Of a stretch of DNA of 32,000 nucleotides, positions 5,557-22,954 are shown in pieces. The notes beneath the pieces were generated by a model. That model saw nothing but the letters and a program-made list of their open reading frames with translations. It searched no databases and had not been told where the DNA came from. Within the stretch, counting starts at the first letter, position 1; each line of letters opens with the position of its first letter. The position numbers and the translations under genes are program-made. This DNA comes from Promethearchaeia archaeon (lineage in GTDB: Archaea; Asgardarchaeota; Lokiarchaeia; Sigyniarchaeales; SOKP01): the NCBI GenBank assembly GCA_046497275.1, contig JAWOFX010000088.1:60001-92000 (forward strand), written 5' to 3'.

Positions 5557-5688
5557 TCTTATTCCTAATTTTTATTTTTCCTTACTATTTTATCAATATT
5601 TAAAATAATTTTATAAACATAAAACCCATATTTATAATATTGTAAATCTAGATAAGTAACTTATTAATCATCAATAAGAAGATATCTT

Positions 5689-6606
5689 ATGTCATATGAA
5701 AATGAAGGAAATGATGAAGAAGAAGAAAAAGAAATAAAAAGACCTTCTATTCCACCTCCAAAAATTCAAGCCCCAAAAATTAGACCTCCTCCAAGCCCCC
5801 CACCTAGAAGAACTCCTGAATCTGATATGACTCCATCGCAACCATCATCTGCACCACCCAAACCTCCATCATCAATACCCACTCAATCGGCTCCACAACC
5901 AGAACAATATTCTCCACCTCCACCTCAACCTCAACCTGAAATGACTCCTACTACATCTATCCCAAGTGAATCGCAATATAGTAATTTAGAAACACAATTA
6001 GAACAAAAAGACGTAAAAATTCAAGAATTGCAGAATCAAAATTCTAATTTAAATAGCTTACTACTGGAGAAAGATAATAATATTCAACAACTTAATAATA
6101 AAGTAAATTCTCTCCAAAATCAACTCCAAGAATATGAAACTCGTGTTAATCAACTTAATGAACAAAAATCTAGTTTAGAATCACAAATACCTCAATTACA
6201 AAGCAACATTCAACAATTAGAACAGGAAAATGCTAATCTTAAACAACAAATATCTCCTCTACAATCTAAAATAGAACAATTAACAGAGGAAATTAATTAT
6301 AAAAATAAAAGAATAGAGGAATTGAAAGAACCTAAGGCAGTTATGCCATCTAGTTTAGCGCAAGGGAAGACATCTCAAGGATCTGACGATTATTCCAGTT
6401 CTTCTTTAGGTATGGGAACATCCTCGTCCTCAAGTAGTGTATCTGGGACTTCATTTACAGACACTAAAAGAAGAGTCTGTCCAAATTGTGGTGCATCTGG
6501 AGCAGCTATTAAAGAGGTAGAAGATAAAAATAAGATAATTAGCTATATCCCAAAACCGACGTATGCCAAGAAGAATGTGTGCACGAAATGTGGGTTTGAG
6601 TTCTAA
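5689..6606 (+). CDS. Hypothetical protein: Pro-rich N-terminus, long coiled coil, Ser-rich linker, C-terminal C4 Zn ribbon
   Basis: Poly-Pro tracts at aa 19-92, heptad pattern at aa 100-212, CPNC...CTKC at the C-terminus. Confidence 0.8.
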   Translation: MSYENEGNDEEEEKEIKRPSIPPPKIQAPKIRPPPSPPPRRTPESDMTPSQPSSAPPKPPSSIPTQSAPQPEQYSPPPPQPQPEMTPTTSIPSESQYSNLETQLEQKDVKIQELQNQNSNLNSLLLEKDNNIQQLNNKVNSLQNQLQEYETRVNQLNEQKSSLESQIPQLQSNIQQLEQENANLKQQISPLQSKIEQLTEEINYKNKRIEELKEPKAVMPSSLAQGKTSQGSDDYSSSSLGMGTSSSSSSVSGTSFTDTKRRVCPNCGASGAAIKEVEDKNKIISYIPKPTYAKKNVCTKCGFEF

Positions 6607-6984: not shown

Positions 6985-9900
6985 ATGTCTGGATTAGATG
7001 AAGGTCTTTTAGGACCAACAATCACGAAAAAGCGAGTTATTGCTCTTGCACTAGTCACTATCATAATGATCGCTGCATTCGCATACTCTGTAATGATTTA
7101 TAGCTGGTTATTTGGTTCACCCCGTAAAAGTCCAAATGAAAGATTAGAAGGTGCTCCAGAAGAGGATGCGTTATTAATTCTTCCTGAATCGGGGTACAAT
7201 TGGAGTGAATTAGCGGAAAATTTAGATCTCGATGATCCTGATTTACTCGATCAATTGAGAGATTTACATGATGGTAATATTGATTTATTAGATCTCTTAC
7301 AATATGCTGAATTAGCGGCTGCCTTGGCAGGATCCGATATTGAAGTATTTCGAGTATATAATATTCCATCCTATGAAGAAGTAAGTGAAAAATTATGGAA
7401 GTTTGAATGTTTTGATGAGTTTCTGGGTGATTCTTGGGAATGTAATGTACCTCTCCAAAATTATGATTTTTATTCATATAGTGATTATTACTCTAAACAT
7501 TCTGGATTAAATATTTATAATATTTCAATGCCTTTATCTCCCGGTTTAGGTTCAAACTCTTTTATGATTCCAAATTTGTTCCCGAATCCTTATATCATGG
7601 AAAATAGCATTAAAGTTCCAAATATAACTCCCGGATCAGAAGTTTTAAGAAAAAATGCTTTTAATTCCACTACATTAACTCTTGATTTTACATCTGAAAA
7701 TTCTGTTAATATGACATATGAATTATTTGGATTAACATTACCAACTAATACAGAAATTAATAATTCTGCCTTAGATGAGGATTATACTCCAGCAATCATA
7801 AGAGATAGATATCTTCAACTCCCTCCCGATATTTCTACTTATTTAGATTTTAATGTTCACCCAAATATTAATTTTCATTACAATAATTTAAGAACCATCA
7901 TAAATGATGAAGATACTTCTTTTGTTGTCGCTAATAAAATCAGAAATTATCTACAGGAAAACTTTAGTTTTGGATATAATGCTCTTGAAAATTCTCCCCC
8001 AGCTGATGGAGAGGATCTTGTGGAATGGTTCTGTTTTCATGAAGAGGGTATTTGGACTCACTTCGCTTCTGCCTTTTGCGTTTTCTGTAGGGCTTTTGGA
8101 GTTTCTTGCAGGTTTGTTGATGGATATAATTCCCGATATGCCGATACGGTAAACGATCCTATAATGGGAGATGGAATAGCTGTAAAATATAGAAATTTAT
8201 ACAATTGGGCGGAAGTTTACATACCAACTGATGTGTCTGGAAATGGCATATGGGTTCAAATGGATATGCTTTACGATTCTTTTGGAGGAGGTTCAGGAGT
8301 TGGACCAATATTAAATAATTATAATATAACTCTTTCCAGTAATTTTACATCTGGACCTCGAGGATCAATTGCGCAACTTAATGCAACCTTGAGTAGTTCA
8401 TATAATCTTTCTGTTTCTGATAAAAATATTCAATTTTATGATTATACTATGGATGAAATTTTAGGTTTTAGCACTACTGATTCAAACGGGTTAGCTACTT
8501 TCACATTTCCAATTGATGATAATCAAACTGTAGGACCACATATAATATATGCAAGCTATGGTGGCGCTGCTAATTTGACTTTTTATATCGTAGATGGTGA
8601 TATACAAGTCAATTTAACCTCAGTTAGCCCACCGCAAGTTAATATTTCCCAAGACCCATATACCACAATAAGTGGAACTGTAAGGGATCCAGTTAATGGA
8701 AAACCAGTGAAAAATGCAATTATGAATTTAATCTTATATCAAAAAGGTACAAATAATATTGTAAATCCTTCTTTCAGTCCTTCTTCAATAACAGCAAATG
8801 ATAATGGAGTATTTAGCCAAACTGTAAATATAGATTCTTCGGTTCCTTATGGACAGTATGAAGTAAGAGTAGATTTTAATGGAAGTTGGGCTAATCCTTT
8901 AAGTCCATCATTTCCTTTCACATATCCATTTATTAACAATTACAGCAACAGATTAGATTTAAACGTTACAAAAGAATTAACGTATTCATTGTGGTTTTAT
9001 ATTAATGATATCCCTGCTACTGATAATTCCAATCCCTTGGTATCTCGCTTTTCTACGATCGAACTGAAAGCGATTGTTTATAATGGAACAGGCGACTTAG
9101 CAAAAAATGAAATCATCGGATTTTATGATGGTTCTGGAACTTTAATTGGGCAAAATGTAAGTGATGAGAATGGAGTTGCAATTTATAATTATAATGTTGG
9201 CATTAATGTTCCAGCAGGTCCAAATCAAATTATTTCCCGAATTGGAACTATTTCTAATAGTTCATATTATATTTTAAATGCTCCAATAAATATCTATCCA
9301 ATAGATTGCCCAAATCCTAATAGTGTCAGTCGAAGTTCTCTAGATGATGAAGATTTCACTATTCAAGGTTATTTAGAGGACGATTATTCTAATCCAATAA
9401 GAAGTGCGATAATTTATATTAATTTATACGATCAGAGTGACTCAGATGTCACATCCCAATACCTTGAATATGTCAGTGGATCTTTTATAACGGATAATAA
9501 CGGCAACTTTTCTCTGCAGTTTGGAGTAGATAACATTACACCATTGAATAATTATACTCTTAATGTAAGCTTTTATGGACAATTTAATAATCCTTCTGTC
9601 AGTTTTGTTTCTTCTCAAACACAAGAATCTCCTTATGAATTAGAAGTCATTGATCCATATCAAATTGATATTTATTTTACAATCGATGGAACTCCAACAA
9701 AATTATTCTATAATGATGGAAATCCGCCTAAACGATATAATCTTGGTGAAAATATAAATTTTGGAGTTGAAATATATCAAGGTGGCAGTCCTGTTGATAA
9801 TGACACAGTATATTTCTATGATTATGATGTTAGTAATGATATTCCGTTTCATACATATGAGTTTAATGGATTTGAGACACCATTAGGGTATTACAATTTT

Positions 9901-10719
9901 TCTGTGAATACAGGAAGCTGGAATGCAGGATTACATGAAATTAGAGTAACTTATGGTAATTATGGTGTATATAATTTTACTTACGTACTTATTAATAAAT
10001 CTATTTCAATCAATACAAATTTGGATTCTCCAAGCGATTATACTATTCAAAGACTTTCAGAAAGCTTAACTATTTCTGGGAACGTTTATGATTTTGATAG
10101 TCTCGATCATTTACGAGGTCTAGGAATAGGATTATATCTATTCGATATTAATGGTCAAGATTATTCAGATGATTTGAATTTTGCATCTGGATATTCTCAA
10201 AATATGACTTTAGATCAAGATGGTACATTTCAGTTTGTTATTAATTCTGTAAATGAAATTCCGATAGGAGAATATAATTTAAGAGTTGATTTCAATGGAA
10301 CGGTAATAGAATCCGCAATATATTTGTCTGATTATCTTGTTCATTCTTCAAGCTCTCCAATAAATATAAATATTACAGCAGGAGTTCAGATTGATGGTAA
10401 TTATGATACTGTTTATGATAAAGATCAATTTTATTACAACGATACAATGTATGTCTATGGATATTTAAATTGGGATAATCTTACAGTTATGAATAATTAT
10501 GAGGTAAATATAACGATACTTGATGCTTTAGACAATATATTGGAAACCAAAATTGCTACTACTGATCCAAGTGGATTTTTCAATACATCATTTACAGTTA
10601 AAAATTGGGATGAGGATACTACAAAAGTGATAGTCAATTTTTTACCCGAAGATAATTTTGACTTTCCTGACTATTATTATGTTGAGGCAAAATCTCAACA
10701 AGTTTTTAGAGAGATTTGA
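6985..10719 (+). CDS. Membrane-anchored surface protein with a transglutaminase-like domain (apparently inactive) and tandem Ig-like beta-sandwich repeats
   Basis: N-terminal TM (VIALALVTIIMIAAFAYSVMIYSWLF); TGase-fold signature GIWTHFASAFCVFCRAFGVSCRFVDGY...YNWAEVYIP...WVQMD; repeated TDxNG and RVDFNG motifs; many N-x-S/T sequons. Confidence 0.8.
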   Translation: MSGLDEGLLGPTITKKRVIALALVTIIMIAAFAYSVMIYSWLFGSPRKSPNERLEGAPEEDALLILPESGYNWSELAENLDLDDPDLLDQLRDLHDGNIDLLDLLQYAELAAALAGSDIEVFRVYNIPSYEEVSEKLWKFECFDEFLGDSWECNVPLQNYDFYSYSDYYSKHSGLNIYNISMPLSPGLGSNSFMIPNLFPNPYIMENSIKVPNITPGSEVLRKNAFNSTTLTLDFTSENSVNMTYELFGLTLPTNTEINNSALDEDYTPAIIRDRYLQLPPDISTYLDFNVHPNINFHYNNLRTIINDEDTSFVVANKIRNYLQENFSFGYNALENSPPADGEDLVEWFCFHEEGIWTHFASAFCVFCRAFGVSCRFVDGYNSRYADTVNDPIMGDGIAVKYRNLYNWAEVYIPTDVSGNGIWVQMDMLYDSFGGGSGVGPILNNYNITLSSNFTSGPRGSIAQLNATLSSSYNLSVSDKNIQFYDYTMDEILGFSTTDSNGLATFTFPIDDNQTVGPHIIYASYGGAANLTFYIVDGDIQVNLTSVSPPQVNISQDPYTTISGTVRDPVNGKPVKNAIMNLILYQKGTNNIVNPSFSPSSITANDNGVFSQTVNIDSSVPYGQYEVRVDFNGSWANPLSPSFPFTYPFINNYSNRLDLNVTKELTYSLWFYINDIPATDNSNPLVSRFSTIELKAIVYNGTGDLAKNEIIGFYDGSGTLIGQNVSDENGVAIYNYNVGINVPAGPNQIISRIGTISNSSYYILNAPINIYPIDCPNPNSVSRSSLDDEDFTIQGYLEDDYSNPIRSAIIYINLYDQSDSDVTSQYLEYVSGSFITDNNGNFSLQFGVDNITPLNNYTLNVSFYGQFNNPSVSFVSSQTQESPYELEVIDPYQIDIYFTIDGTPTKLFYNDGNPPKRYNLGENINFGVEIYQGGSPVDNDTVYFYDYDVSNDIPFHTYEFNGFETPLGYYNFSVNTGSWNAGLHEIRVTYGNYGVYNFTYVLINKSISINTNLDSPSDYTIQRLSESLTISGNVYDFDSLDHLRGLGIGLYLFDINGQDYSDDLNFASGYSQNMTLDQDGTFQFVINSVNEIPIGEYNLRVDFNGTVIESAIYLSDYLVHSSSSPININITAGVQIDGNYDTVYDKDQFYYNDTMYVYGYLNWDNLTVMNNYEVNITILDALDNILETKIATTDPSGFFNTSFTVKNWDEDTTKVIVNFLPEDNFDFPDYYYVEAKSQQVFREI

Positions 10720-10754
10720 GAAAGTGAAGAAAAAACATATAAATCAAAAATATT

Positions 10755-12359
10755 ATGAATCGAGAATTATTATTTGGGAAAAATAGGAATTATAGTACAT
10801 CCATATTTCTTTTTTTCATCCTTTTTGTAATTTTATTTAATTCAATTTCTATATTTGTTTTTGATGGAATTAAGAGTTCTGAAAATAAAGATCAATATAT
10901 TAAACAATCAGCTTGGACTTGGGCAACTTTAGATTTAACAAATCCAGAAGATATCAATAATTCCCGCTTTTCACATTTTTCAAATATTAGTATTGAAGGC
11001 AGACTTTACAATAAAATAACTGAAGATAATAAATCTGGTGAGATAATTGTCATTGAAGTTGATGGGAATATAGATACGAGATATTCTAGTGTTACAAATA
11101 TAAATGGTATTTTTCAAATTAATTACACGATAGATCCCTCTCTTGATGTCTATTCACCTCATATAATAAAAGCAAAGGTCCAGGATTTAGAAACTGATCC
11201 CCCTGGAGGGGAAGTTGAATATGATGATTTTTACCGGATAAATGTAAACGCTACATCTTATCTTGATGTTACATTTTCCAATAAACCATATCTTCCTGAT
11301 GAAGAATTTGATTTAATTGGATATTTGAGATATAATAATGAAAATGGAAATGGAATTCCAGGTGAATCGATTACTTATTACTGGACCAATGGAACTTATG
11401 ATTGGATACCTGGTAATTTTTTAACTAATGCGGCAGATGGATCAATTTCCGAAGTCATAAGTTTACCTATCAACCCTCAATCAATCCATTTATTTTTAAA
11501 TCTAAGTTATCCCGGTGATCTCCCAAATATAAAATCATCCCAGATAGTAATTGGTCCATTTGATATATTTTACAACATTTCATGTACTTGGAATATGTTA
11601 AACGAAACCTCTGAGGGTGGAGATTATACGATTAGAGGACAAATCTGGGAAAAAGGTAATCCTAGCCGTAAAATTTACAATAGGCAAGTGAATTTATATT
11701 ATGAAGGAGAAGGTCTAATAGGAAGTGCAACTACAGATGCCAACGGAAATTTTTCTTTCATTTATTCAATTCCCCCGGGTACAGGAAATAAATCCATCAG
11801 AATTCAATTAGTAAACACTGCAGGTTTGTTTTTGACCAATGAAACGCGGATATTAATCACGGCTGGAGTCCCAATCCTCCCTCCTGGCTTTAATATTAGA
11901 CCTTTCCAATGGTTTTTTATAATAGGTCTTCCGATTATTATCGGAATAATTGCTGCACTTGGAATTTACGGATATTTCTATTATAAAAAAGAAATATCTG
12001 CCTCGCGGCTAGTTAATATCCCACTTGAGGGAAAGATTAGAAATCTAAAAATATTAAAGGATTCCGGAAGAATAGAAGAGGCACTTTCATATCTATTTAA
12101 TGCGATTTATGTTGAATTAGTTGGAGCAAAATACGGAAGAAAAAGAAAATTTAATGAAACAATCCGTGATTTTGCTATAATTTCTGTGCAAGATTTTAAA
12201 TTAGATCCCGCTAAAATATATCCTTTCATTCAAAAAATAGAACAAATAATTTATGCTCAACCCTTCAAAGTCACAGAAGAAGAATTTTATAAAACAATTG
12301 AGCTATTCTCGCCCGTATATTATCAATTAACGGGATACAAGTTTATTCTTAATTTTTAA
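10755..12359 (+). CDS. Membrane protein with extracellular Ig-like repeats, a TM helix and a cytoplasmic DUF4129-like domain
   Basis: N-terminal hydrophobic segment; TNING and TTDANGNF repeats; TM FQWFFIIGLPIIIGIIAALGIYGYFYY followed by KK; C-terminal ETIRDFA...IEQIIYA motif. Confidence 0.7.
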   Translation: MNRELLFGKNRNYSTSIFLFFILFVILFNSISIFVFDGIKSSENKDQYIKQSAWTWATLDLTNPEDINNSRFSHFSNISIEGRLYNKITEDNKSGEIIVIEVDGNIDTRYSSVTNINGIFQINYTIDPSLDVYSPHIIKAKVQDLETDPPGGEVEYDDFYRINVNATSYLDVTFSNKPYLPDEEFDLIGYLRYNNENGNGIPGESITYYWTNGTYDWIPGNFLTNAADGSISEVISLPINPQSIHLFLNLSYPGDLPNIKSSQIVIGPFDIFYNISCTWNMLNETSEGGDYTIRGQIWEKGNPSRKIYNRQVNLYYEGEGLIGSATTDANGNFSFIYSIPPGTGNKSIRIQLVNTAGLFLTNETRILITAGVPILPPGFNIRPFQWFFIIGLPIIIGIIAALGIYGYFYYKKEISASRLVNIPLEGKIRNLKILKDSGRIEEALSYLFNAIYVELVGAKYGRKRKFNETIRDFAIISVQDFKLDPAKIYPFIQKIEQIIYAQPFKVTEEEFYKTIELFSPVYYQLTGYKFILNF

Positions 12360-12490
12360 TATAAAGGATTATCATAATGCAAAACAAATAAAATTAAAAT
12401 AAGTTATTAAAAAAATAGATTACTACAAAGAAATTTAAATTTAAAAAAAATTATAAAATAAAAAAATAAAAAAAACTAATGTGAAAAAAA

Positions 12491-12862
12491 ATGGGTCTTT
12501 TCAGTAAAGATGTAAAACCACAATTCATAGATGTTGAACGCAAAAAAGAAAATCTTCGAATATTAATGAAAACCGAAAGATCTAAGGAAGCAATTGCCTA
12601 CATATATCTTATCTATAATGATCTTATTAAGAATAAATATGAAAAACCTCGATTGGCTTATCAGACCATACGTGAGTATGCAATCGTAGCTGTAAATGAG
12701 TTAGGACAAAAACCCGAAACCATTTATCCCTTTATAAAAAAAATTGAAGATATAATATATGGGGGGGTTGAACCTACTAAAAAAGAATTTGAATTTACAT
12801 TAAATATGTTTTCAAACCTTTATAATGAGATTACAGGCAAAAACTTTGGTTTCAATATTTAG
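12491..12862 (+). CDS. Stand-alone soluble DUF4129-like protein, paralog of the upstream gene's C-terminal domain
   Basis: QTIREYAI...IYPFIKKIEDIIYGG aligns with ETIRDFAI...IYPFIQKIEQIIYAQ in 10755-12359. Confidence 0.72.
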   Translation: MGLFSKDVKPQFIDVERKKENLRILMKTERSKEAIAYIYLIYNDLIKNKYEKPRLAYQTIREYAIVAVNELGQKPETIYPFIKKIEDIIYGGVEPTKKEFEFTLNMFSNLYNEITGKNFGFNI

Positions 12863-12911
12863 AGAAGATTTTTTAAATATTTCATATAGATTTAAAGGAA
12901 AAAAATAAAAA

Positions 12912-14657
12912 ATGGCAAGTATTGAGAGTTCTACAAGAAAGAGTGTAAAGATTTCCAAGGGAATTTTATATATCTTCTTTACAGTTTACTTAATCGTTAT
13001 AGGAGTATATTTAACAGGATTTATCGAATCCTATCAATCTACTAATCCCGGAGAATTGCCCGTTTTTACTAATTATGTTCCTTTAGCTTGTTATTTGGGA
13101 GCAGCAGTTGTTGGAATTAGTTTTATTATTTTTATTCGCAATATAACAGCTCAAAAAACACGGGAACTGAAGTCTAAACGAAAATCACAAATCTCCCTTT
13201 TTAAACAAGCACTATTCATTATCATTTTTATATTTGCTTTTATCCCATTATTCTCTCCTATAATTGATCAAGGTGTAAATAATCATAATTTTTCAGTATA
13301 TAATTCTGGGTGGAATGGTTCCTCAGATTTCAGACAAACGATGATTGATGAGGGTTATGATGTGATGTCAATCCAATCAAGTTTAAGTGCTACAGAGAGA
13401 CTTGATAAGTCTATATGCTTAGTTTTATTGGGACCAAATCAATTTTATAATCCCCTTTTTGAAATTCCGTTTTTTGTTGATTTTTTTAATGGAGATAATG
13501 CGATCTTAATTTGTCACGATCATGGTTCAACTAGAGAATTATTATGGCAAATTCTCCTCTCAAGTTTACTTAGTCCTAATGCTACTGAAATGATCCCAGT
13601 CACATTATTTGCGACTGGTTATCTAAGGGATAATGCATCTTATCTTACTAATCCAAAATTTCCAATAATCACTCAATTTGAACCTCACCCCACTACTAAT
13701 GGTATTGATGATGTTATTCTTTCTACAGCAACAAGCGCAGCGGGAGGTCCCCTTGTAGATATTTTTGGATGGAATGTAATTGCTCGTGGTTCACCTTACA
13801 GTTTTGTAGACAGAAATGATGACGGTAGATTTAACTCTTCAGACGATTATTTAGATCTTTCTTTTATGGCAGCTGCATTACCCATCCCAGAGGAATATCT
13901 CAAATTACCACTCGGCGGAGATGAATTTACCCCTATCACTTTTATGACAAAAGATACGGGAAGTGCTCGTGTATTTGTGTCTTCAGATGCAAGTATGTGG
14001 AATAATGAACTAATCAATCTTCCCGGATATGATAATAAACAATTTGCAATTAATGTAATAGATTGGTTAACTCGTCAAGATGAAGGAGACCCTAAGGATA
14101 ATTGGATTGTAGCATTCGATGAAGCTCATATTCGTCCAGAACAATCGAGAGATTTAAGTTCTGCGGGAATTTATGGCTATATTATGCAGTATATTATTCA
14201 CTTAAGTACAAACCCAATAACTGCGTGGATTTATCCCTTGTTGGCAATTTATACTCTCAGACGTTATTTACCGGGAGGTAAAAAGAAAAAAGAGAAGAAA
14301 AAAATAGAAGAAGAAGAAAAAAAGGAAGAGAAGATGAGATTTCGCACCTCTTCTTTTTTCGCAAAAAAAATTGATTGGTATCGTGACAAAAGTCAATATA
14401 AAAAAGCTTTATTATTATTGAACCGTCGCTTAGAACGAAAGTTAAATGCCCAGTTAGGAGGGAAAAAAATAACAACAGATAATGTAGTTAATCTAGTACG
14501 ATCTAAAGAACCAAATATAAATAAAAGTAAACTTAAACGCATCTCCCGATTTATTGATAAAATAATATCCCTGAAATCAGGTAAGTTAAAAATTAAAGAA
14601 GAATCTGAATTCGAAGAATTTTTCTTTGAAATGGAATGGGTTGTTTCAAATATATAA
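12912..14657 (+). CDS. DUF4350-like (GATase-like fold) membrane protein
   Basis: Three N-terminal TM segments; FSVYNSGWNGSSDF, RVFVSSDASMWNN, DNKQFAINVIDWL and VAFDEAH motifs; C-terminal TM and a Lys/Glu-rich tail. Confidence 0.72.
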   Translation: MASIESSTRKSVKISKGILYIFFTVYLIVIGVYLTGFIESYQSTNPGELPVFTNYVPLACYLGAAVVGISFIIFIRNITAQKTRELKSKRKSQISLFKQALFIIIFIFAFIPLFSPIIDQGVNNHNFSVYNSGWNGSSDFRQTMIDEGYDVMSIQSSLSATERLDKSICLVLLGPNQFYNPLFEIPFFVDFFNGDNAILICHDHGSTRELLWQILLSSLLSPNATEMIPVTLFATGYLRDNASYLTNPKFPIITQFEPHPTTNGIDDVILSTATSAAGGPLVDIFGWNVIARGSPYSFVDRNDDGRFNSSDDYLDLSFMAAALPIPEEYLKLPLGGDEFTPITFMTKDTGSARVFVSSDASMWNNELINLPGYDNKQFAINVIDWLTRQDEGDPKDNWIVAFDEAHIRPEQSRDLSSAGIYGYIMQYIIHLSTNPITAWIYPLLAIYTLRRYLPGGKKKKEKKKIEEEEKKEEKMRFRTSSFFAKKIDWYRDKSQYKKALLLLNRRLERKLNAQLGGKKITTDNVVNLVRSKEPNINKSKLKRISRFIDKIISLKSGKLKIKEESEFEEFFFEMEWVVSNI

Positions 14658-14736
14658 TAATCATTTTAAAAAAATTTATAACAATTAATTACTATAATCA
14701 AAAAAAAGTAAAAAAAATAAAAAAGGTTTAAAAATT

Positions 14737-15717
14737 ATGACAGTACCGAGTAAAGGAGAGAAGTATGACCACCCAGAATTGGATGTCACCCCCATTCGTG
14801 AGATTGCTCAAGATGTATTATCGGAAGTAAGTAGAGTGATCGTTGGATATGGGGAAACATTACAGCAATTATTCATAGCTTTACTTGTAAATGGACATGT
14901 TCTTTTAGAAGGCGTTCCAGGTTTAGGAAAAACAGTGATGGCAAAAACTTTTGCTGAAACTCTTGGGATAAGTTTTAGAAGAGTTCAATTTACACCAGAT
15001 CTTTTACCCGCTGATATTACGGGAACTAAGATCTTTTCCCAAGAGAAAGGGAACTTTGTGCTTCAAAAAGGCCCACTATTCGCCAATTTAGTTCTTGCTG
15101 ATGAAATAAATAGAAGTGCGCCTAAAACTCAAGCCGCGCTTCTTGAAGCTATGGCTGAGCGCCAAATCACCATAGAAGGGGAAACATTAGCGCTTGAGAA
15201 ACCCTTTATCGTAATAGCTACTGAAAATCCTATTGAGATGGAAGGCACATATCCGCTTCCGGAAGCACAGGTTGATAGATTCTTATTCAAACTCTGGTTA
15301 GATTATCCAGAACAAGATGAAGAAGTTGAGATTATGCGGCGGCAATTATCTGGCGATTTACCGTCTGTACAACGAATTACGACTGGCTCTGAAATTTTAG
15401 CTGCCCAAAACTTAGTGAATCAAGTGTATATTGATGAGAGAATCCTTAAATATATCAGAGACCTTATTTTAAAGACCAGAAGTCATCCACAAGTACAAAT
15501 GGGGTGTGGTCCACGTGCATCTTTAGTCTTGATGAAATGCTCGAAAGCACGAGCGGCTATCCTTGGACGAACATATGTAACACCTGATGATGTGCGTGCA
15601 TTAACCGTTCCAGCCCTCAATCATAGACTTCTTTTAAAGCCGGAAGCTGAATTAGAAGGTCTTGATGTGAAAGCGGTTGTTAAGAATATACTTGAAGAAA
15701 TTCCAATTCCGATATAA
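14737..15717 (+). CDS. moxR: MoxR-family AAA+ ATPase
   Basis: Walker A GVPGLGKT, RVQFTPDLLPADITG, Walker B LADEINR, ATENPIEMEGTYPLPEAQVDRF. Confidence 0.97.
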   Translation: MTVPSKGEKYDHPELDVTPIREIAQDVLSEVSRVIVGYGETLQQLFIALLVNGHVLLEGVPGLGKTVMAKTFAETLGISFRRVQFTPDLLPADITGTKIFSQEKGNFVLQKGPLFANLVLADEINRSAPKTQAALLEAMAERQITIEGETLALEKPFIVIATENPIEMEGTYPLPEAQVDRFLFKLWLDYPEQDEEVEIMRRQLSGDLPSVQRITTGSEILAAQNLVNQVYIDERILKYIRDLILKTRSHPQVQMGCGPRASLVLMKCSKARAAILGRTYVTPDDVRALTVPALNHRLLLKPEAELEGLDVKAVVKNILEEIPIPI

Positions 15718-15770
15718 ATTGAGTATTTTTCTAGCGCTTGAATAAAGTGATATCACTATTAGAAAAGAAT

Positions 15771-15775
15771 GGAGG
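15771..15775 (+). promoter_or_regulatory. Shine-Dalgarno-like ribosome-binding site supporting the TTG start of the DUF58 gene
   Basis: GGAGG 10 nt upstream of TTG 15786. Confidence 0.55.
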
Positions 15776-15785
15776 AAAATAAAAC

Positions 15786-17114
15786 TTGTTAGGTGGTAAA
15801 GGAAGAAGTTTAGTTATATTTAGCGTCTTTTTCCTTACAGCAGGATTTGCTTTTGTAAATTATTTCCTTGTATTTTTTGGAATAATTTTATTATTTAGTA
15901 CAGTTGTGAGTCTTCCTCTTTTCTATTACCAAATGAACATTGAGGAATTGAAAGTTTCTCGAGAATTAGAAAAAGAGAAAGTCTTCAAAGATGATTTCGT
16001 TCATATTAAAGTAATTGTAGAAAATCGAGGCAAGAATAGTTTTGATTTTCTTGAAATTCGTGATTCTTATAATCCTGAATTGTTTAGGCTTATTTTGGGA
16101 GAAAATTTCATAAGTACACGGATAGGTCCTAAAGAAATTATCAAGTTTTCCTATATTTTAGAACCAAAAGTACGAGGAACATATCCGATTGGTCCTTTAA
16201 GTGTGACAGTAAAAGATAGACTTGGATTTAATTCTGAAGAAAGGATAGTTCCAGAGAGTGTAACTGATATTTTGATTTATCCTCCTTATGAAGATATAAA
16301 AAGAATTGAGATATTAGGTTCAAAACGTTCTCTTCAGCTAAACTATGGTATTCAAAGATCCAAACAAAAAGGATTGGGATCTGAGTTTTATGGAATGAGA
16401 AAATATGTGTTTGGAGATCAATTTCGATTAATCGATTGGAAAGCGAGTGCACGAACTCAAAAACTCATTGTCCGAGAATTTGAATCAGAACGAGATATAA
16501 CCGTGATGATATTGGTTGATTCTTCGAATTCTATGGCAGGTGGCGCAATTGACAACACAAAATTCGAATATTCCATTAGAGCGTGTATGTTATTAACTAA
16601 AATTGCTCTTACACGCCGAGATAGTGTAGGTGTGTATACATTTTCAGATAAAAAGAACCTCCGCTTTTTAAAACCTGGAAGCGGTGATGATCATTTCTAT
16701 CGCATTTTGGATTTTGTTGCGAGAGTAAAACCAGAAGGAAAATGTAAGATGGTAGAAGCACTTGATTATTTCAATCGGAGGTTTCAAAAAAGAAGTTTAA
16801 TTTTTCTAATTTCAGATTTGGAATCAGATATTAAAGAGATCCGACAGGCATTGAAGAAATTGGTTCCATTTGATCACTCTGTGATTATTATTAATCCATT
16901 CTCTCCATGGTTTGAGATTCATGAAGTTGACTTATCAACAACAGATAAAGCATTAGCAGAAGCAATCGCAGAGGAGATGATGGAGCACATATTAAAAATC
17001 AGACAAGAAGTACGTAATATGGGTATGAATGTTATCACAGTTGGCCCGGATGATATGATGAATCAAGTAATCGCTAATTATCTTGAAGCTAAGAAAAAGG
17101 GTAAAGCCTATTGA
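15786..17114 (+). CDS. DUF58 / vWA-domain protein (MoxR partner) with an N-terminal TM hairpin
   Basis: GSEFYGMRKYVFGDQFRLIDWKASAR...LIVREFE DUF58 core; MIDAS DxSxS (VDSSNS); two N-terminal hydrophobic helices. Confidence 0.92.
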   Translation: MLGGKGRSLVIFSVFFLTAGFAFVNYFLVFFGIILLFSTVVSLPLFYYQMNIEELKVSRELEKEKVFKDDFVHIKVIVENRGKNSFDFLEIRDSYNPELFRLILGENFISTRIGPKEIIKFSYILEPKVRGTYPIGPLSVTVKDRLGFNSEERIVPESVTDILIYPPYEDIKRIEILGSKRSLQLNYGIQRSKQKGLGSEFYGMRKYVFGDQFRLIDWKASARTQKLIVREFESERDITVMILVDSSNSMAGGAIDNTKFEYSIRACMLLTKIALTRRDSVGVYTFSDKKNLRFLKPGSGDDHFYRILDFVARVKPEGKCKMVEALDYFNRRFQKRSLIFLISDLESDIKEIRQALKKLVPFDHSVIIINPFSPWFEIHEVDLSTTDKALAEAIAEEMMEHILKIRQEVRNMGMNVITVGPDDMMNQVIANYLEAKKKGKAY

Positions 17115-17119
17115 GGTGA
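17113..17119 (+). promoter_or_regulatory. Shine-Dalgarno site overlapping the DUF58 stop codon
   Basis: GAGGTGA 7 nt upstream of ATG 17127, consistent with translational coupling. Confidence 0.6.
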
Positions 17120-17126
17120 AAAAAAA

Positions 17127-18608
17127 ATGAAACGCTATTATCTCACAATATTGAGGATTTTAAATGCTCTTTTATTTGTATGGATTATATTCATTTTTCT
17201 TTCATTATTTGACTTTAGCGCAGTCTTAACAACCTCCGATAATGAATTAGTCATTTTAGATGTGATCTTATCTATCAAGAATCTCATAAGTTATGGCTTG
17301 TATTTTATTTTATATTTAATAGCTTATGGGATCGCCTTCATTATGGCGGGTTTATTCTCACCTTTTGCATTTTTTAATCTGAATTATACACTAACTTTTA
17401 TTCAGCAATTCTTTAAAAATTACTTAAGTGTATGGTTTTCTTTCCCCGGAGGGGCAGCTCCGGAATTATTTCAAGTTCCTCCCCTAATGTTGCAAGAATT
17501 ATTACTTTTTACAGAAGATTTTTATCTCCTTATTTTCCAAATTCTCTTCATAATCGCAATAATTTATCTAATTAGGGGAATCATTTCAAGTGATCCTAAA
17601 ATTAACATGAGGGCTTTAGGATGTTTAATCTTAATGATTGTCATTCCTCTCATAATTTTTGGATTTAGAGATATGTTAGCATTGTTTAATTTGGTAGAAC
17701 CATTTAATTCTCTTGGTATAATAAATTTAAACGAGTTGGCAGATCCTTTAAGTCCATTATTTGATAATCTCCCTATTGACAACTTTTTTGCATTCCTAGC
17801 AAGTCCTGTGGCCTTATTCGCTATTTTTAGCTATTTATATTTGGAACTTGCATTCCAAATAAATTATATAGACACAGTAACACGACCTTCATTAGAAAGA
17901 AGTGATAGGTTGGAAGCTCAGTTAAATTTACTAAGAAAAGAAGCGGGTCATATTACTGCAAACATTGATAAAATAAAAGAAGAGGCTAAGAAGAAAAAAG
18001 AAGAATTAGGGATTGAAAGAGAATCTATCGGAAAATTTTTGACTCAAAAAGACAAAAAATTTTCATATGTAAAAGAAATGATTGAAAAAAGAAAATTAGA
18101 GTCTGAAGAAAAGAAACTGGTGCGCGCAGCTTCAAAAACAAGAAGATTGGGAAGATATATAGAAAGGTTATTTAGAGAGGATTCTGAGGCAGAAGATACA
18201 ATTACTGCAAAATCCTCGGCACCTAGAGCAAGAAACCTAGCCATTTCAACAATATCAAATGCAGCATTTAGATTAATTATGTTAATTTTAATCAGTTTTA
18301 TTATAATACATCCGAAATGGTTTTTCAAAAATGTCTTTCAATTACCTCCAGCAATTACAGAAAGTGTCGCTACATTAAGTCCCGAAATAATTCTTATTCT
18401 ATTATTACCAATCATTTTATTATTTCCAGTAATTGGTAAAATTATCTCTTATATAAAACATAGAACTCTTGTGTTGAGATTAAAGCAAGAGGGAAAAATT
18501 AAAGAAATACTCGCTTCAGTGGGTGATTATGTGAAGAAAGAAGAGATACCAGAAGACCAGACTGAAGAAGAAATACCTTTTTCGGAAATTGCGACAGAAG
18601 CTACATAA
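17127..18608 (+). CDS. Polytopic membrane protein of unknown function with a charged coiled-coil loop
   Basis: Several hydrophobic helices at about aa 5-245, a Lys/Glu-rich helical region at about aa 255-360, two more TM helices, and an acidic tail. Confidence 0.75.
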   Translation: MKRYYLTILRILNALLFVWIIFIFLSLFDFSAVLTTSDNELVILDVILSIKNLISYGLYFILYLIAYGIAFIMAGLFSPFAFFNLNYTLTFIQQFFKNYLSVWFSFPGGAAPELFQVPPLMLQELLLFTEDFYLLIFQILFIIAIIYLIRGIISSDPKINMRALGCLILMIVIPLIIFGFRDMLALFNLVEPFNSLGIINLNELADPLSPLFDNLPIDNFFAFLASPVALFAIFSYLYLELAFQINYIDTVTRPSLERSDRLEAQLNLLRKEAGHITANIDKIKEEAKKKKEELGIERESIGKFLTQKDKKFSYVKEMIEKRKLESEEKKLVRAASKTRRLGRYIERLFREDSEAEDTITAKSSAPRARNLAISTISNAAFRLIMLILISFIIIHPKWFFKNVFQLPPAITESVATLSPEIILILLLPIILLFPVIGKIISYIKHRTLVLRLKQEGKIKEILASVGDYVKKEEIPEDQTEEEIPFSEIATEAT

Positions 18609-18622
18609 ATAAAATAAAAAAT

Positions 18623-19552
18623 CTATAATTCTAACATAAATCTAGCTAATTCCTTTTTTCTCTGAAGATTATTCATTAGAGTATTTGTTATAAAAACATT
18701 TATTCCTAAATCTTGAATCCTAGATTTCAGTTCTCTATCTTTATTATCAATAATGAAATTTCCTAAAAACGATTGATAATATTTTGCTACTCCGAAACAA
18801 GAAACTTCCAAGTTTGCCCATTTTAATAATTTATCTGCTGGACCTTTAACAGTTTCTCCAGCAATAATAGGGCTAATTCCATAAACCTTTTCTTTTACTT
18901 TACTTAGAGCTTCCTTTATTCCATTTACCTTTAATATTGTTCCAATGGAAACTATTGGGTTGGAGGGACAAATGATAATTCTCTTTGCTCTTTTTATTAA
19001 ATCTAAAGAAATATCAATAGGATTTGCATTCTTTATCCCTTTAAATTCCACATCTAGAATTTTTGGATTACATCCGTATTTTATATAATATTCTTCAAAA
19101 TGAATAAGTCCTACATTTGTTTTGATATATGTTTGTACCTTTTCATTACACATAGGCATTATTTTCGCTTCTACATCTAACTTATGACAAATTTTTTCAG
19201 TTATTTCTGATTTAGAAAATCCTTCAGAAAAGAGGTCGCTTCTATAGATATGAGTAGCTAAATCCTTATCACCCGCATTAAACCATGAAATATCATAAAA
19301 TTTGGATAATTCCTTTAAACAATGATAACTCTCATTTTGAAACCCCCAGCCTTTCTCTCTATCAATGACATTAGCTAAAGTATAAGTAATTATATCTAAA
19401 TCCGGACATATATAAAGTCCGAATAACTTTATATCATCGGCTGTATTTACTATGACTTTGATCCTTTTTTGATCGATTATATGAGCCAATCCATCAATAA
19501 ATTTAGCCGCACCTACACCTCCAGCTAATAAGAGATAAAAATCATCATTCAT
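18623..19552 (-). CDS. cofD: 2-phospho-L-lactate/phosphoenolpyruvate transferase (F420 biosynthesis, CofD/FbiA)
   Basis: AGGVGAAKF, VNTADD, ICPDLD, GDKDLATH and PSNPIVSI motifs. Confidence 0.95.
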   Translation of the reverse strand: MNDDFYLLLAGGVGAAKFIDGLAHIIDQKRIKVIVNTADDIKLFGLYICPDLDIITYTLANVIDREKGWGFQNESYHCLKELSKFYDISWFNAGDKDLATHIYRSDLFSEGFSKSEITEKICHKLDVEAKIMPMCNEKVQTYIKTNVGLIHFEEYYIKYGCNPKILDVEFKGIKNANPIDISLDLIKRAKRIIICPSNPIVSIGTILKVNGIKEALSKVKEKVYGISPIIAGETVKGPADKLLKWANLEVSCFGVAKYYQSFLGNFIIDNKDRELKSRIQDLGINVFITNTLMNNLQRKKELARFMLEL

Positions 19553-20969
19553 TTAAATTTTCACTTAATTTGTATATTATTTCTTCTAAATTCTTACGTT
19601 TGGGTCGTTTTTGTAATTCTTTGGGATATCCTACAGTAATAAAGGCCATAGGATCAAACTCTTTAGGGAGTTTAAGTATTCTTTTAACTTGCTTTTTTGC
19701 AAATAAGGGAGCACAGTACCAAGAACCAGCTAAACCTTCAGATTCCATTGCTAATAGTAAATATATCGCAGATGTACTTATGCTTTGAACACCTAATAAA
19801 TATTCATTTTGTAATCTTTTTTTATCAGGATAACTTTCCAAATCTGATTTATCTAAACATAATAATATTAAGATTGGAGCTTTTAGAAAACACTTTTTTG
19901 TTTTATCTATTTTATTATTGATAAATTTGGTAGATTTCCCATCTCTGCTTAAATCTTCCCTTAATTTTTCATTCATTTTATCAATTAAAATTTTTCTTGT
20001 TTTCCCTCTCTCTAAAACAATATATCTCCAGAATTGTCCATTATGAGCACTGGGAGCCCATCGAGAAAGATCGATACATTTTTTTACTAAATCTATATTA
20101 ACTGGTTTCTCTAAAAAATCTAATTTATAACTTCTTCTATTCATTAAGATTTTTTTTATATCTTCATTATTTGCTTTCCTAAAAAGATCCTTACTCTTTT
20201 CTCTTAGAATTGAGTTAATTGAAACATCCTCTTTAATCTTATAATTATATCCCTTTATCAAGACAATGGGTATTGCTTCATCTGATTCTCCCATAACTAA
20301 TTGAGCTGCAGCTGCAAGACTGTCTATTTGTCCTATTATAGTGGTTTTTAGCTCTTTTTCATACAAATCTTTTTCCCCTCTCTTATCTAATATGGGGGAC
20401 ATTCCGGATACACCAATAGCAGTCCCCACAGATCCAATCCTAAAAGATCTTCCAAAGGAATCAGAAATAATTACTGCTAAATTTTTATTAGTTTTATTTT
20501 GGATATAGTGTCTAATTTTTCTTGCCTCATTGTCTGGATCATTGGGTAGGAGAGAGATCTTGTTATTTCCTTCCACATTGGATTTATCAATCCCAGCATC
20601 AGCACAAACAAAACCATGTTTCGTTTCGGTGATAAGGACATGTTCTGATTTTATTATTCTGTTTGATTCATCGAGTATTGCTTGTATTAGTTCTGGATTC
20701 TTGATGGGTAAATTAGCCCTTTTGCTTTTTTTTTTGATACTATGATAAATATCAAATGCTCTTTCACTTGGGTGTATTTTATTTAAATCTTTTATTAAAC
20801 CAAGACTTTTTGACACAATTATTTGCGCAATGACTAAAATATCTCCATTATCTAGAAAAACCTCATTTTTAGTTAAGCCTTCTATAATAAGCTCTGCAAT
20901 ATTATCCCCCTCTTTAATTAAGGGAATACCAGTGATTCCAATTAACTCAATACTATTTTTTTTTTGCAT
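19545..20969 (-). CDS. cofE: Coenzyme F420-0:L-glutamate ligase fused to a C-terminal nitroreductase domain (FbiB-type)
   Basis: CofE motifs GIPLIKEGD, CADAGIDKSN, ISDSFGRSFRIG and GESDEAIP; nitroreductase motifs RRSY...APSAHNGQFWRY and DPMAFITVGYP. Confidence 0.93.
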   Translation of the reverse strand: MQKKNSIELIGITGIPLIKEGDNIAELIIEGLTKNEVFLDNGDILVIAQIIVSKSLGLIKDLNKIHPSERAFDIYHSIKKKSKRANLPIKNPELIQAILDESNRIIKSEHVLITETKHGFVCADAGIDKSNVEGNNKISLLPNDPDNEARKIRHYIQNKTNKNLAVIISDSFGRSFRIGSVGTAIGVSGMSPILDKRGEKDLYEKELKTTIIGQIDSLAAAAQLVMGESDEAIPIVLIKGYNYKIKEDVSINSILREKSKDLFRKANNEDIKKILMNRRSYKLDFLEKPVNIDLVKKCIDLSRWAPSAHNGQFWRYIVLERGKTRKILIDKMNEKLREDLSRDGKSTKFINNKIDKTKKCFLKAPILILLCLDKSDLESYPDKKRLQNEYLLGVQSISTSAIYLLLAMESEGLAGSWYCAPLFAKKQVKRILKLPKEFDPMAFITVGYPKELQKRPKRKNLEEIIYKLSENLNE

Positions 20970-22946: not shown

Positions 22947-22954
22947 TGTTATTC

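Follow-up and report, generated by a model that had tools for sequence, protein, structure and literature searches.

A Lokiarchaeia gene cluster as an Asgard version of the DUF4129/DUF4350/MoxR/DUF58 membrane module

Seven plus-strand open reading frames (g1–g7) at positions 6985–18608 of the window, the whole 32,000-nucleotide stretch of DNA analysed from a Lokiarchaeia (Asgard) archaeon, can be identified fairly securely as the Lokiarchaeia version of the DUF4129/DUF4350/MoxR/DUF58 membrane module of archaea and bacteria (Table 1). The first-pass annotation had presented this gene set as undescribed, but two published neighbourhoods already cover it (PMC5898192, PMC3495828). The cluster is an Asgard variant of the published module, with a split between g1 and g2, a free DUF4129-like protein (g3) and a membrane protein (g7) whose relatives come from Asgard records only. 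Modules of this kind are very widespread, DUF4129 or DUF4350 is named in only seven papers of the literature searched, and we know of no function assigned to the module. Given how widespread it is, working out its function in a single organism would annotate thousands of genomes, and the occurrence of fused and split forms indicates which parts should touch, making the question testable.

Layout and conservation of the cluster

Table 1. The seven predicted genes of the cluster, with positions in the window.
Gene	Coordinates	Strand	Length (aa)	Features
g1	6985..10719	+	1244	N-terminal TM anchor, transglutaminase-like core, run of Ig-like/MG2/CarboxypepD_reg beta-sandwich domains; without C-terminal anchor
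g2	10755..12359	+	534	Hairpin topology: N-terminal TM, Ig-like ectodomain, TM ~386–408, DUF4129-like helical tail ~422–534, predicted cytoplasmic
g3	12491..12862	+	123	Free soluble DUF4129-like five-helix bundle; paralogue of g2 tail
g4	12912..14657	+	581	Three N-terminal TM, DUF4350/GldG (GIFT)-like ectodomain, one C-terminal TM, K/E-rich linker, conserved basic helical tail FRTSSFFA..., predicted cytoplasmic
g5	14737..15717	+		MoxR-family AAA+ ATPase, AAA_3 + AAA_lid_2, predicted cytoplasmic
g6	15786..17114	+		DUF58: two-helix N-terminal membrane hairpin, BatD/DUF11-like beta-sandwich, vWA with MIDAS motif
g7	17127..18608	+		Polytopic, ~6 + 2 TM helices, ~125-residue helical hairpin predicted cytoplasmic

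The intergenic gaps from g1 to g7 measure 35, 131, 49, 79, 68 and 12 bp, and Shine-Dalgarno sequences precede both the TTG start of g6 (GGAGG) and g7 (GAGGTG). These coordinates and motifs bear out the first-pass description of seven same-strand genes with gaps of 12–131 bp and Shine-Dalgarno sites at the last two; its domain calls were also right, Pfam matches and alignments being in agreement with them. Separately, contigs from RNA-labelled salt-lake libraries contain approximately half of the sampled words of positions 9500–18700, which is a hint only of expression of the cluster.

The gene order is common to 80 species-level loci of the same family. The flanking genes of this family are conserved as well, hence synteny within it says little by itself. 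The core (DUF4129-x, DUF4350, MoxR, DUF58 and g7) is also ordered alike in sister families. Each of the 12 distant loci examined, from 11 further Asgard families, has a recognisable related core as well, set among flanking genes that nearly all differ. Surveyed across Asgard archaea in this way, as had been suggested from the sequence, the seven genes behave as a conserved unit. Some Asgard families depart from the layout, with g7 not detected or DUF58 located apart from DUF4350. Median identity within the family is 84% for MoxR and 81% for DUF58, 69% and 61% for the flanking HDAC and CofD genes, and 46% and 38% for the fast-evolving ectodomain proteins g2 and g1, the latter being the fastest-evolving gene of the cluster. 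Identity of the cluster proteins declines with taxonomic distance across Asgard archaea, with MoxR at 48–57% across the phylum.

The functional unit could instead be MoxR-DUF58 only, perhaps together with g7, with the surface-protein genes as conserved neighbours that have no physical link to it. Pairs of MoxR and DUF58 are found in many unrelated contexts (PMC5898192), only DUF58, MoxR and g7 were recognised at one distant Asgard locus (L114), and in two sister-family genomes MoxR/DUF58 were not found within ~5 kb downstream of the DUF4350 gene. We nevertheless regard this explanation as improbable, because DUF4129-bearing and DUF4350 genes lie upstream of MoxR-DUF58 in 11 of the 12 distant Asgard loci and on a Methanococci contig, and widely in archaea according to the literature.

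Relatives of g7, a family of 430–540 aa, were found only in Asgard records. The family was detected in 181 of 201 Asgard genomes, including 85 of the 88 high-quality ones, almost always with one match per genome, and the present genome has no DUF58 gene other than g6. This near-universal, one-per-genome occurrence of g7, together with a single-copy DUF58, looks like a core envelope function and not a patchy accessory system. The DUF4350 gene, g4, was present in all 41 searched genomes of the order.

Domain composition and predicted topology

Residues 306–428 of g1 match Transglut_core (Pfam, E 4e-14), with weak Pfam matches to Ig-like, MG2 and CarboxypepD_reg domains. The closest solved sequence relative is the TgpA domain of P. 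aeruginosa (6g49), and in the alignment of the two, W357 of g1 occupies the position of the catalytic Cys and Y406 that of the His, while D427 is kept. The Cys is absent from 12 of 12 orthologues aligned across the order, none of which has a His at the aligned position, and from three fused relatives in other Asgard families. In these orthologues and fused relatives, W, F, Y, P, D or T stands in its place, and the His is usually lost too. Judged from these alignments, the transglutaminase core of g1 is catalytically dead. This bears on a reading in which the cluster performs membrane-proximal proteolysis or cross-linking with the transglutaminase-like domain as catalytic effector, as published for MoxR-vWA-TGL operons (the Zhang and Aravind 2012 model; PMC3495828), or anchoring of the EsrD type, EsrD being the Esr transglutaminase that retains its filament on the cell (PMC13622651). 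Loss of the nucleophile throughout the aligned set makes such a reading very unlikely indeed; moreover, the domain is predicted to lie on the extracellular side, away from MoxR, and several Asgard families have no transglutaminase module in the cluster.

The first-pass annotation had called g2 and g3 DUF4129-like. Family membership is supported by transitive evidence, although neither the window's own g3 nor the g2 tail matched PF13559 directly, even at E <= 10. The g2 tail is 41% identical to g3 (E 2e-21). Sister-family orthologues score 18–21 bits on PF13559, below the cut-off of 24.8 (18.5 for the tail of the g2 orthologue in genome G025), and the same-position genes of other Asgard families score 28–48 bits. 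A g3 family profile recovered only 153 representative clusters among 1.84 billion proteins, and the distant matches tested were above the PF13559 cut-off (28–48 bits) at the matched C-terminus. The AF2 model of g3 is a five-helix bundle (pLDDT 85) with invariant residues E33, Y37, E86 and Y90, and the closest fold cluster in the ESM Atlas bears the name DUF4129 (TM-score 0.91). Taken together, the sequence and fold matches indicate that these domains are probably divergent true DUF4129. The g3 model is also similar (TM-score 0.70) to helical domains in BatD-type and DUF4381 proteins from Bacteroidota, which is a lead only.

A compact form with five genes, [TM-pseudoTGase-Ig-TM-DUF4129]-DUF4350-MoxR-DUF58-g7, occurs in other Asgard families; in it, one fused protein corresponds to g1 and g2. 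Genes for single-chain Transglut_core + Ig + DUF4129 proteins of this kind immediately precede DUF4350-MoxR-DUF58-g7 in other Asgard genomes, which supports the idea that the surface part is physically linked to the DUF4129 tail. We infer that an ancestral TM-pseudoTGase-Ig(n)-TM-DUF4129 protein was split here into g1 (TM, pseudoTGase, Ig repeats) and g2 (TM, Ig, TM, DUF4129), followed by the free DUF4129 protein g3.

On PF14258 (DUF4350), g4 scored 21.2 bits, below the Pfam cut-off of 30.4, and a weak PF09822 match was also present. Its compact relatives in other Asgard families share 23–31% identity (phmmer E 1e-18 to 7e-53), and PF14258 is listed in precomputed Pfam tables for these relatives and for database homologues of the compact form. 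The g4 tail is not detectably DUF4129-like (hhalign probability 0.1%).

The last gene, g7, has a homologue in the gene that closes the compact clusters (E 6e-30) and contains a conserved motif, YLE.SFQ..Y....P.LER. No Pfam or NCBIfam family matched g7, and a whole-genome search with PF01944 (SpoIIM) gave no match at g7 even at E <= 10. The AF2 model contains a long helical hairpin (residues 227–351, pLDDT 77), and comparison with known folds returned no transporter or channel match above noise.

The MoxR protein g5 matches AAA_3 (E 3e-64), with Walker A (GVPGLGKT) and Walker B (LVLADEINR) motifs read from the translation. The DUF58 protein g6 matches PF01882 (E 4e-34, 118 bits) and also VWA_2. 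Of the MIDAS that had been claimed as intact in g6, the DxSxS motif (D245-S247-S249) and the distal D344 can be read. Both Asp residues, D245 and D344, are invariant among 16 Asgard sequences, 14 of which have the full DxS/TxS/T motif.

Sequon distribution and composition fit the trans-envelope layout proposed earlier. The g1 ectodomain contains 36 N-x-S/T sequons (18.8 ± 3.8 expected from shuffled sequences) and that of g2 contains 12 (5.2 ± 2.0 expected), approximately a twofold enrichment in each case, and the transglutaminase/Ig parts have the character of acidic, sequon-rich ectodomains. Sequons are not enriched in the cluster parts predicted to be cytoplasmic: the composition of MoxR, of the g6 vWA domain and of the DUF4129 bundles is basic and cytoplasm-like, and their sequons number none or at most one. 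The two-helix hairpin and the lack of sequons in g6 point to a cytoplasmic vWA domain.

A possible mechanism and its alternatives

We tentatively propose, with somewhat less than even confidence, that MoxR and DUF58 work from the cytoplasm on the DUF4129 tails, so as to assemble a glycosylated complex at the cell surface or to switch its state. The seven products would form one trans-membrane complex. On the outside, it would present the N-glycosylated, fast-evolving Ig stalks of g1 and g2, the dead transglutaminase fold of g1 perhaps serving as a binding module, and beside these stalks the GIFT-like ectodomain of g4, possibly glycan-binding. On the inside, the membrane-tethered DUF58 vWA domain would grip a cytoplasmic element via its MIDAS site. 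The best candidates for the MIDAS ligand are the DUF4129 bundles (the g2 tail and g3) with their invariant Glu residues, with the g4 tail and the g7 coiled coil as alternatives. A MoxR hexamer would use ATP to remodel the element held by DUF58, and this remodelling may drive or check assembly of the surface complex, or switch its conformation. The cluster has no output or effector domain, so the surface complex is a conjectural target. That DUF58 and MoxR act through the DUF4129 tails is something we only infer. The MoxR/vWA pairs CbbQO, NorQD and midasin, which mature or release large complexes, are the pairs on which this mechanism is modelled. Such pairs combine a MIDAS-dependent adaptor with an AAA+ remodeller (reviewed in PMC9976466), and this role has been argued for the MoxR-vWA-TGL operon type (PMC3495828).

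The cluster might also work in the opposite direction, as an Esr-like outside-in sensor in which the Ig stalks detect a virus, an epibiont or a syntrophic partner and pass a signal via the TM segments and DUF4129 tails to MoxR/vWA, the response being encoded elsewhere in the genome. The Esr clusters of Schaalia odontolytica (So F0309), which sense epibionts, encode a surface filament of Ig repeats together with a transglutaminase, MoxR and vWA (PMC13622651). In the Asgard cluster, the ectodomain proteins diverge far faster than the cytoplasmic ones and the first gene is the variable one between families. However, a Pfam scan of the seven proteins and 10 flanking genes detected no output domain, be it a kinase, phosphatase, FHA, beta-propeller or another type, and the near-universal, single-copy distribution, with identity falling with taxonomic distance, is unlike that of typical conflict systems. 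The Esr transglutaminase is also presumed to be catalytic in filament anchoring, whereas the nucleophile is absent here. We consider a sensor rather unlikely.

Dedicated secretion or translocation, with g4 and g7 as a conduit and MoxR/DUF58 energising the export of g1- and g2-type surface proteins, follows the model of Makarova et al. 2015, which drew on the similarity to GldG and on the abundance of membrane and extracellular components (PMC5898192). The polytopic and conserved nature of g7 agrees with this idea, but the N-terminal hydrophobic anchors of g1 and g2 are ordinary and would suit Sec, and the g7 model lacks a transporter or channel fold match. MoxR proteins are not known to act as translocation motors, which also counts against secretion, and we give it little weight.

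Returning to the assembly or switching of a surface complex, cultured Lokiarchaeia have no ordered S-layer but bear “complex surface proteins”, which have been proposed for cell-cell contacts relevant to eukaryogenesis (PMC9834061). With g7 in 181 of 201 genomes, a single-copy DUF58 and the core in 12 of 12 distant loci, the cluster is a candidate for part of the Lokiarchaeia surface and its ATP-driven handling machinery. A bolder version, which we hold to be a long shot, would make the module a vertically inherited, near-universal Asgard housekeeping machine for building or switching the surface coat of Lokiarchaeum ossiferum, which by cryo-ET is unordered and not an S-layer. It would act integrin-like and inside-out, with the MIDAS/AAA+ pair engaging DUF4129 tails to alter the glycosylated Ig stalks for cell-cell contact. 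Several superfamilies are shared with eukaryotic proteins: MoxR with dynein and midasin, vWA/MIDAS with midasin, inactive TGL with ciliary CC2D2A and CEP76, and GIFT with IFT52 and OST48. As a weaker layer of the housekeeping-machine reading, the Asgard operon might be close to the source of some eukaryotic modules.

Comparison with known systems

Bacteria carry a six-gene module of DUF4129, DUF4350, MoxR, DUF58, SpoIIM-like and RDD genes. This module and the Bacteroides Bat operon resemble the Asgard cluster in the order DUF4129, DUF4350, MoxR, DUF58, then polytopic membrane protein(s). The Asgard cluster differs in having no RDD, BatA/BatB or TPR genes, in the lack of a SpoIIM match in g7 and in the addition of large transglutaminase/Ig surface proteins.

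The Esr clusters of Actinomycetales (bioRxiv 2026, PMC13622651) and the related Bifidobacterium PFNA operon (PMC8430577) likewise encode a surface filament of Ig/FN3 repeats together with a transglutaminase-like protein, MoxR and vWA/DUF58. Among such sets in the searched literature, only Esr has a role that has been shown by experiment (PMC13622651). Esr has a beta-propeller sensor head, a Ser/Thr kinase, a phosphatase, an FHA output and a presumably active transglutaminase, all absent from the Asgard cluster. Neither DUF4350 nor DUF4129 appears in the available part of its description.

The cluster matches much of the arCOG01314 (DUF4350)-MoxR-vWA-Ig neighbourhood, which Makarova, Galperin and Koonin defined in 2015 and interpreted, by prediction only, as a complex for secretion or membrane remodelling (PMC5898192). 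Both comprise, in one predicted operon, a membrane-anchored DUF4350/GldG-like protein, MoxR (COG0714), Ig+vWA (DUF58), Ig-like surface proteins (here g1 and g2) and polytopic membrane proteins (here g7), which are small in the arCOG01314 type. A Methanococci contig (L119) carries, in the same order as here, Ig-TM-(DUF4129-motif tail), DUF4350, MoxR, DUF58 and a small membrane protein. DUF1616 (PF07760, arCOG02884), an S-layer-like family that is frequent but not universal in arCOG01314 neighbourhoods, is present at this locus and was found in none of the seven cluster proteins at E <= 0.1. The arCOG01314 paper mentions neither transglutaminase nor DUF4129, both of which occur in the Asgard cluster, and describes the vWA protein as secreted, whereas that of g6 is predicted to be cytoplasmic (PMC5898192). 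The terminal membrane protein also differs, belonging here to the g7 family known from Asgard records only.

In the TgpA/YebA operons, among the MoxR-vWA-TGL (TgpA) operons of Zhang and Aravind 2012, MoxR and DUF58 adjoin a membrane protein with a transglutaminase core and a C-terminal DUF4129 (PMC3495828; TgpA PMC3507681, structure 6g49). Strict adjacency to MoxR and the vWA/DUF58 gene is held in the Asgard cluster, and the fused Asgard relatives show a weak TgpA_N match. Our cluster differs, however, in that g1 lacks the Cys and His of the Cys-His-Asp triad and has one N-terminal TM where TgpA has a polytopic TgpA_N domain. The Asgard form contains a long stalk of Ig repeats as an insertion, transglutaminase and DUF4129 are split over g1 and g2 with the free g3 alongside, and DUF4350 and g7 genes are added.

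Gene layout and protein content of the cluster

The seven plus-strand genes of the cluster, g1 to g7, are laid out as the first-pass annotation had described: the short intergenic gaps (12–131 bp) measured 35, 131, 49, 79, 68 and 12 bp, and SD sites precede the last two genes (GGAGG before the TTG start of g6, GAGGTG before g7). The window is AT-rich (G+C ~31%) and belongs to contig 69 within a genome of 3.85 Mb that is 98.9% complete; close homologues are found in Promethearchaeota/Lokiarchaeia MAGs, and it also carries a Ras-family GTPase and further typical Asgard genes. A promoter/terminator scan gave counts equal to the shuffled expectation, its model being bacterial and inapplicable to archaea. 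Contigs from RNA-labelled salt-lake libraries contain up to 0.56 of sampled words from 9500–18700, which at most hints at expression.

Features of the window, of the seven cluster proteins and of related loci (L, loci on relatives' contigs; G, genomes, G000 being the window's own)
Feature	Location	Strand	Length (aa)	Content
Ras/Roc-family small GTPase	window 3809-4336	minus	175	Pfam Ras, E 2e-46; typical Asgard eukaryotic-signature gene
Upstream flank	window 4468-6606			histone-deacetylase (HDAC)-family gene and coiled-coil protein
Seven-gene cluster	window 6985-18608	plus		g1 to g7
g1		plus	1244	one N-terminal hydrophobic anchor; Transglut_core (E 4e-14, residues 306-428); remainder with weaker Ig-like, MG2 and CarboxypepD_reg matches as far as the C-terminus
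g2		plus	534	N-terminal TM helix, Ig-like ectodomain, second TM helix 386-408
g3		plus	123	soluble; modelled five-helix bundle, pLDDT 85
g4		plus	581	three N-terminal TM helices, ectodomain, fourth TM helix, K/E-rich linker, conserved helical tail
g5		plus		canonical MoxR AAA_3 ATPase, E 3e-64
g6		plus		DUF58 (E 4e-34) and vWA domain, after a two-helix membrane hairpin
g7		plus	493	polytopic membrane protein with long cytoplasmic helical hairpin
Downstream flank	window 18623-20969	opposite to cluster		cofD and cofE-nitroreductase fusion
Lipoate-protein ligase (LplA/B) gene between two radical-SAM genes	window 21119-23959	minus		ORFs overlap or abut; directly upstream of F420 genes
GIFT-domain protein, G000 contig C186	L002:652-1965	minus	437	IFT52_GIFT (PF23355, E 1.8e-10, above cut-off); also matches ABC_transp_aux; adjoins TRM5/TYW2 methyltransferase
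Long sister-family DUF4350 proteins	L012:5492-7990; L013:6796-9294; L016:6766-9297		832-843	~250 extra N-terminal residues with further TM helices
MoxR gene alone on the opposite strand, G009	L019:9385-10362			between g4 and g6 orthologues; same contig as L106
Two adjacent Snf7 (ESCRT-III) genes	L024:3714-4924	opposite to cluster		~5 kb upstream of a compact five-gene cluster

Among solved structures, the one closest to g1 in sequence is the TgpA periplasmic domain from P. aeruginosa (6g49), and in the alignment to it the catalytic Cys is replaced by W357 and the His by Y406. The Cys is absent from 12/12 g1 orthologues, drawn from three families of the order, and none of the 12 carries a His where the alignment would place it; the Cys is likewise missing from single-chain relatives in other Asgard lineages, one of which retains the His. 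On these alignments the g1 transglutaminase is a pseudoenzyme of ancient standing, and since the Cys is missing across orthologues and single-chain relatives alike, catalytic models are very unlikely here, whether a peptidase as in Zhang and Aravind 2012 or covalent anchoring by g1 as proposed for EsrD, the transglutaminase of the epibiont-sensing Esr pathway of Actinomycetales.

The tail of g2 (~115 aa) shares 41% identity with g3 (E 2e-21). The DUF4129 profile PF13559 finds no match on g3 or on the g2 tail of the window itself, gives 18–21 bits on their sister-family orthologues (cut-off 24.8) and reaches 28–48 bits on small same-position genes of other Asgard families. A g3-family profile matched just 153 representative clusters in a search of 1.84 billion proteins, the domain either standing free (~125 aa) or closing the C-terminal end of chains 250–2260 aa long. 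In the distant matches tested, PF13559 scored above its cut-off at exactly the matched C-terminus, and several of these are single-chain Transglut_core, Ig and DUF4129 proteins. In the ESM Atlas the g3 model comes nearest to a fold cluster of Promethearchaeota named “DUF4129” (TM-score 0.91). The first-pass reading of these domains as DUF4129-like was thus right, by transitive evidence from orthologues, family profile, same-position genes and fold cluster. The next ESM Atlas matches, at TM-score 0.70, lie in the helical domains of BatD-type and DUF4381 proteins from Bacteroidota, a model-based likeness that may serve as a lead only. Foldseek comparison of the g3 model with the PDB returned nothing at E <= 0.001, and a HEPN-like four-helix bundle was rejected because such bundles are generic, its matches being weak (E 0.2 and above).

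N-x-S/T sequons occur at about twice the frequency expected from shuffling in the ectodomains of g1 (36 versus 18.8 ± 3.8) and g2 (12 versus 5.2 ± 2.0), and in the predicted cytoplasmic parts they are missing or no commoner than chance. Both ectodomains are also acidic and low in Lys/Arg, which together with the sequon excess supports the proposed topology, short of proving glycosylation.

The g4 ectodomain gave sub-threshold matches to DUF4350 and ABC_transp_aux (GldG/GIFT), and PDB sequences searched with the g4 profile and a compact-cluster DUF4350 yielded only TM-helix artefacts (GPCRs). DUF4350 is related to the GIFT domain of GldG, IFT52 and OST48 (PMC7226087), hence one may speculate by analogy that the g4 ectodomain binds glycans. 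The g4 tail was considered as a third DUF4129 and showed no detectable relationship (hhalign probability 0.1%). Elsewhere in the same genome, and not in a MoxR cluster, lies a gene for an Asgard protein with a GIFT domain (L002), which has weak look-alikes in many relatives.

In g6, a single-copy DUF58 protein in this genome, the MIDAS residues D245, S247, S249 and D344 are conserved. The DUF58 proteins of several other Asgard families (L111, L113–L118; alignment A5) have an insert of 20–90 aa between the N-terminal TM helices, absent from g6, which would form an extracellular loop. No family match was obtained for g7, including with the SpoIIM HMM, and its model reached TM-scores of at most 0.26 in the ESM Atlas. 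Among 48,161 PDB representatives its best hits were ESCRT-III and seryl-tRNA-synthetase helical hairpins, set aside as a fold assignment with Z 8.1 lying within the stated noise for helical models.

Conservation within and beyond the family

A locus search with the g4 alignment yielded only close Promethearchaeota loci, which served for synteny statistics and not for distant relatives. Gene patterns were consistent with the g1-to-g7 order in 80/80 species-level family loci, interrupted only by contig ends, apart from one locus without a detected g3 and one with a second MoxR-like ORF. MoxR lies on the opposite strand in two of the 80, one of them cut by a contig end. Around the inverted MoxR of G009 only AT-rich low-complexity inverted repeat pairs were found, and with no convincing flanking repeat, either a true inversion or an error of assembly could explain the orientation.

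The flanking HDAC/coiled-coil and cofD/cofE genes also keep their place in the whole family, hence within-family order by itself says little for a functional link. In other Asgard families these flanking genes do not keep that place. Sister families keep g1–g5 or all seven genes. We compared 12 loci from eleven other Asgard families, whose flanks differ in nearly all cases. MoxR, DUF58 and a g7-like gene were present in 12/12, with DUF4129-containing and DUF4350 genes directly upstream in 11/12; identity to the window was 48–57% for MoxR and 37–44% for DUF58. The core is thus kept within the family, in sister families and in the distant loci, and the distant loci provide stronger evidence for a functional link than within-family synteny does.

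The variable position across Asgard families is the first gene. It encodes a fused TM-pseudotransglutaminase-Ig-TM-DUF4129 protein of 1170–1850 aa (L108, L109, L110, L112, also L024), a split pair (L107), or nothing but a small DUF4129 protein that may or may not carry a TM helix (L111, L113, L115, L117, L118). Given these variants, the likeliest reading of g1, g2 and g3 is that the fused form has been split and is accompanied by an additional free DUF4129. The compact clusters end in a homologue of g7 (E 6e-30), and the g7 family was found in 181/201 Asgard genomes, and in 85 of the 88 of high quality, nearly always as a single match. In one of five genomes lacking a g7 match, DUF4350 and DUF58 are still ~2 kb apart, and in the other four the two are separated or DUF58 was not found.

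Assembly or sensing

Median within-family identity is 38% for g1, 46% for g2, 65% for g3, 58% for g4, 84% for MoxR, 81% for DUF58 and 56% for g7, against 69% for the flanking HDAC and 61% for CofD. The fast evolution of the ectodomains keeps alive the alternative that the cluster acts as an Esr-like sensor. However, its near-universal single-copy distribution, with identity dropping with taxonomic distance, and the absence of an output domain speak against sensing, and for these reasons we prefer a role in assembly or remodelling.

Beyond the observed domain content, predicted topology, catalytic-residue loss, conservation and fused forms, an assembly role would have the seven products form one complex in which the vWA MIDAS grips a cytoplasmic element. 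The DUF4129 bundles would be the best candidates for that element because of their invariant E33/E86 and fixed position beside DUF4350-MoxR-DUF58. MoxR would then remodel the held element, leading to assembly or switching of the surface complex. Co-folding of DUF58 (residues 52–442) with g3 from separate alignments scored 0.00, which speaks neither for nor against an interface.

Relation to described modules

The cluster is not the undescribed machine that the first-pass annotation proposed. DUF4129 and DUF4350 have few mentions in the literature searched. Makarova, Galperin and Koonin 2015 defined an arCOG01314 (DUF4350) neighbourhood with MoxR, an Ig + vWA protein, Ig-like S-layer-like proteins and small membrane proteins, and put forward a previously unrecognised complex for secretion or membrane remodelling (PMC5898192). 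We found a Methanococci contig with exactly that published layout, whose Ig protein terminates in a TM helix and a tail bearing the DUF4129 motif (TPRE...YVYGG); PF13559 fell short of E 0.1 on this protein and scored 21 bits on L120, another of the kind. Taken singly, DUF4129, DUF4350 and DUF58 were also detected in Haloferax volcanii, in control searches. Zhang and Aravind 2012 had described a MoxR-vWA-TGL (YebA/TgpA) operon (PMC3495828), and an actinobacterial set of Ig filament, transglutaminase, MoxR, vWA, kinases and FHA protein senses epibionts, a role demonstrated by experiment in a 2026 preprint (PMC13622651). The seven-gene cluster is an Asgard variant, itself new, of a known predicted module.
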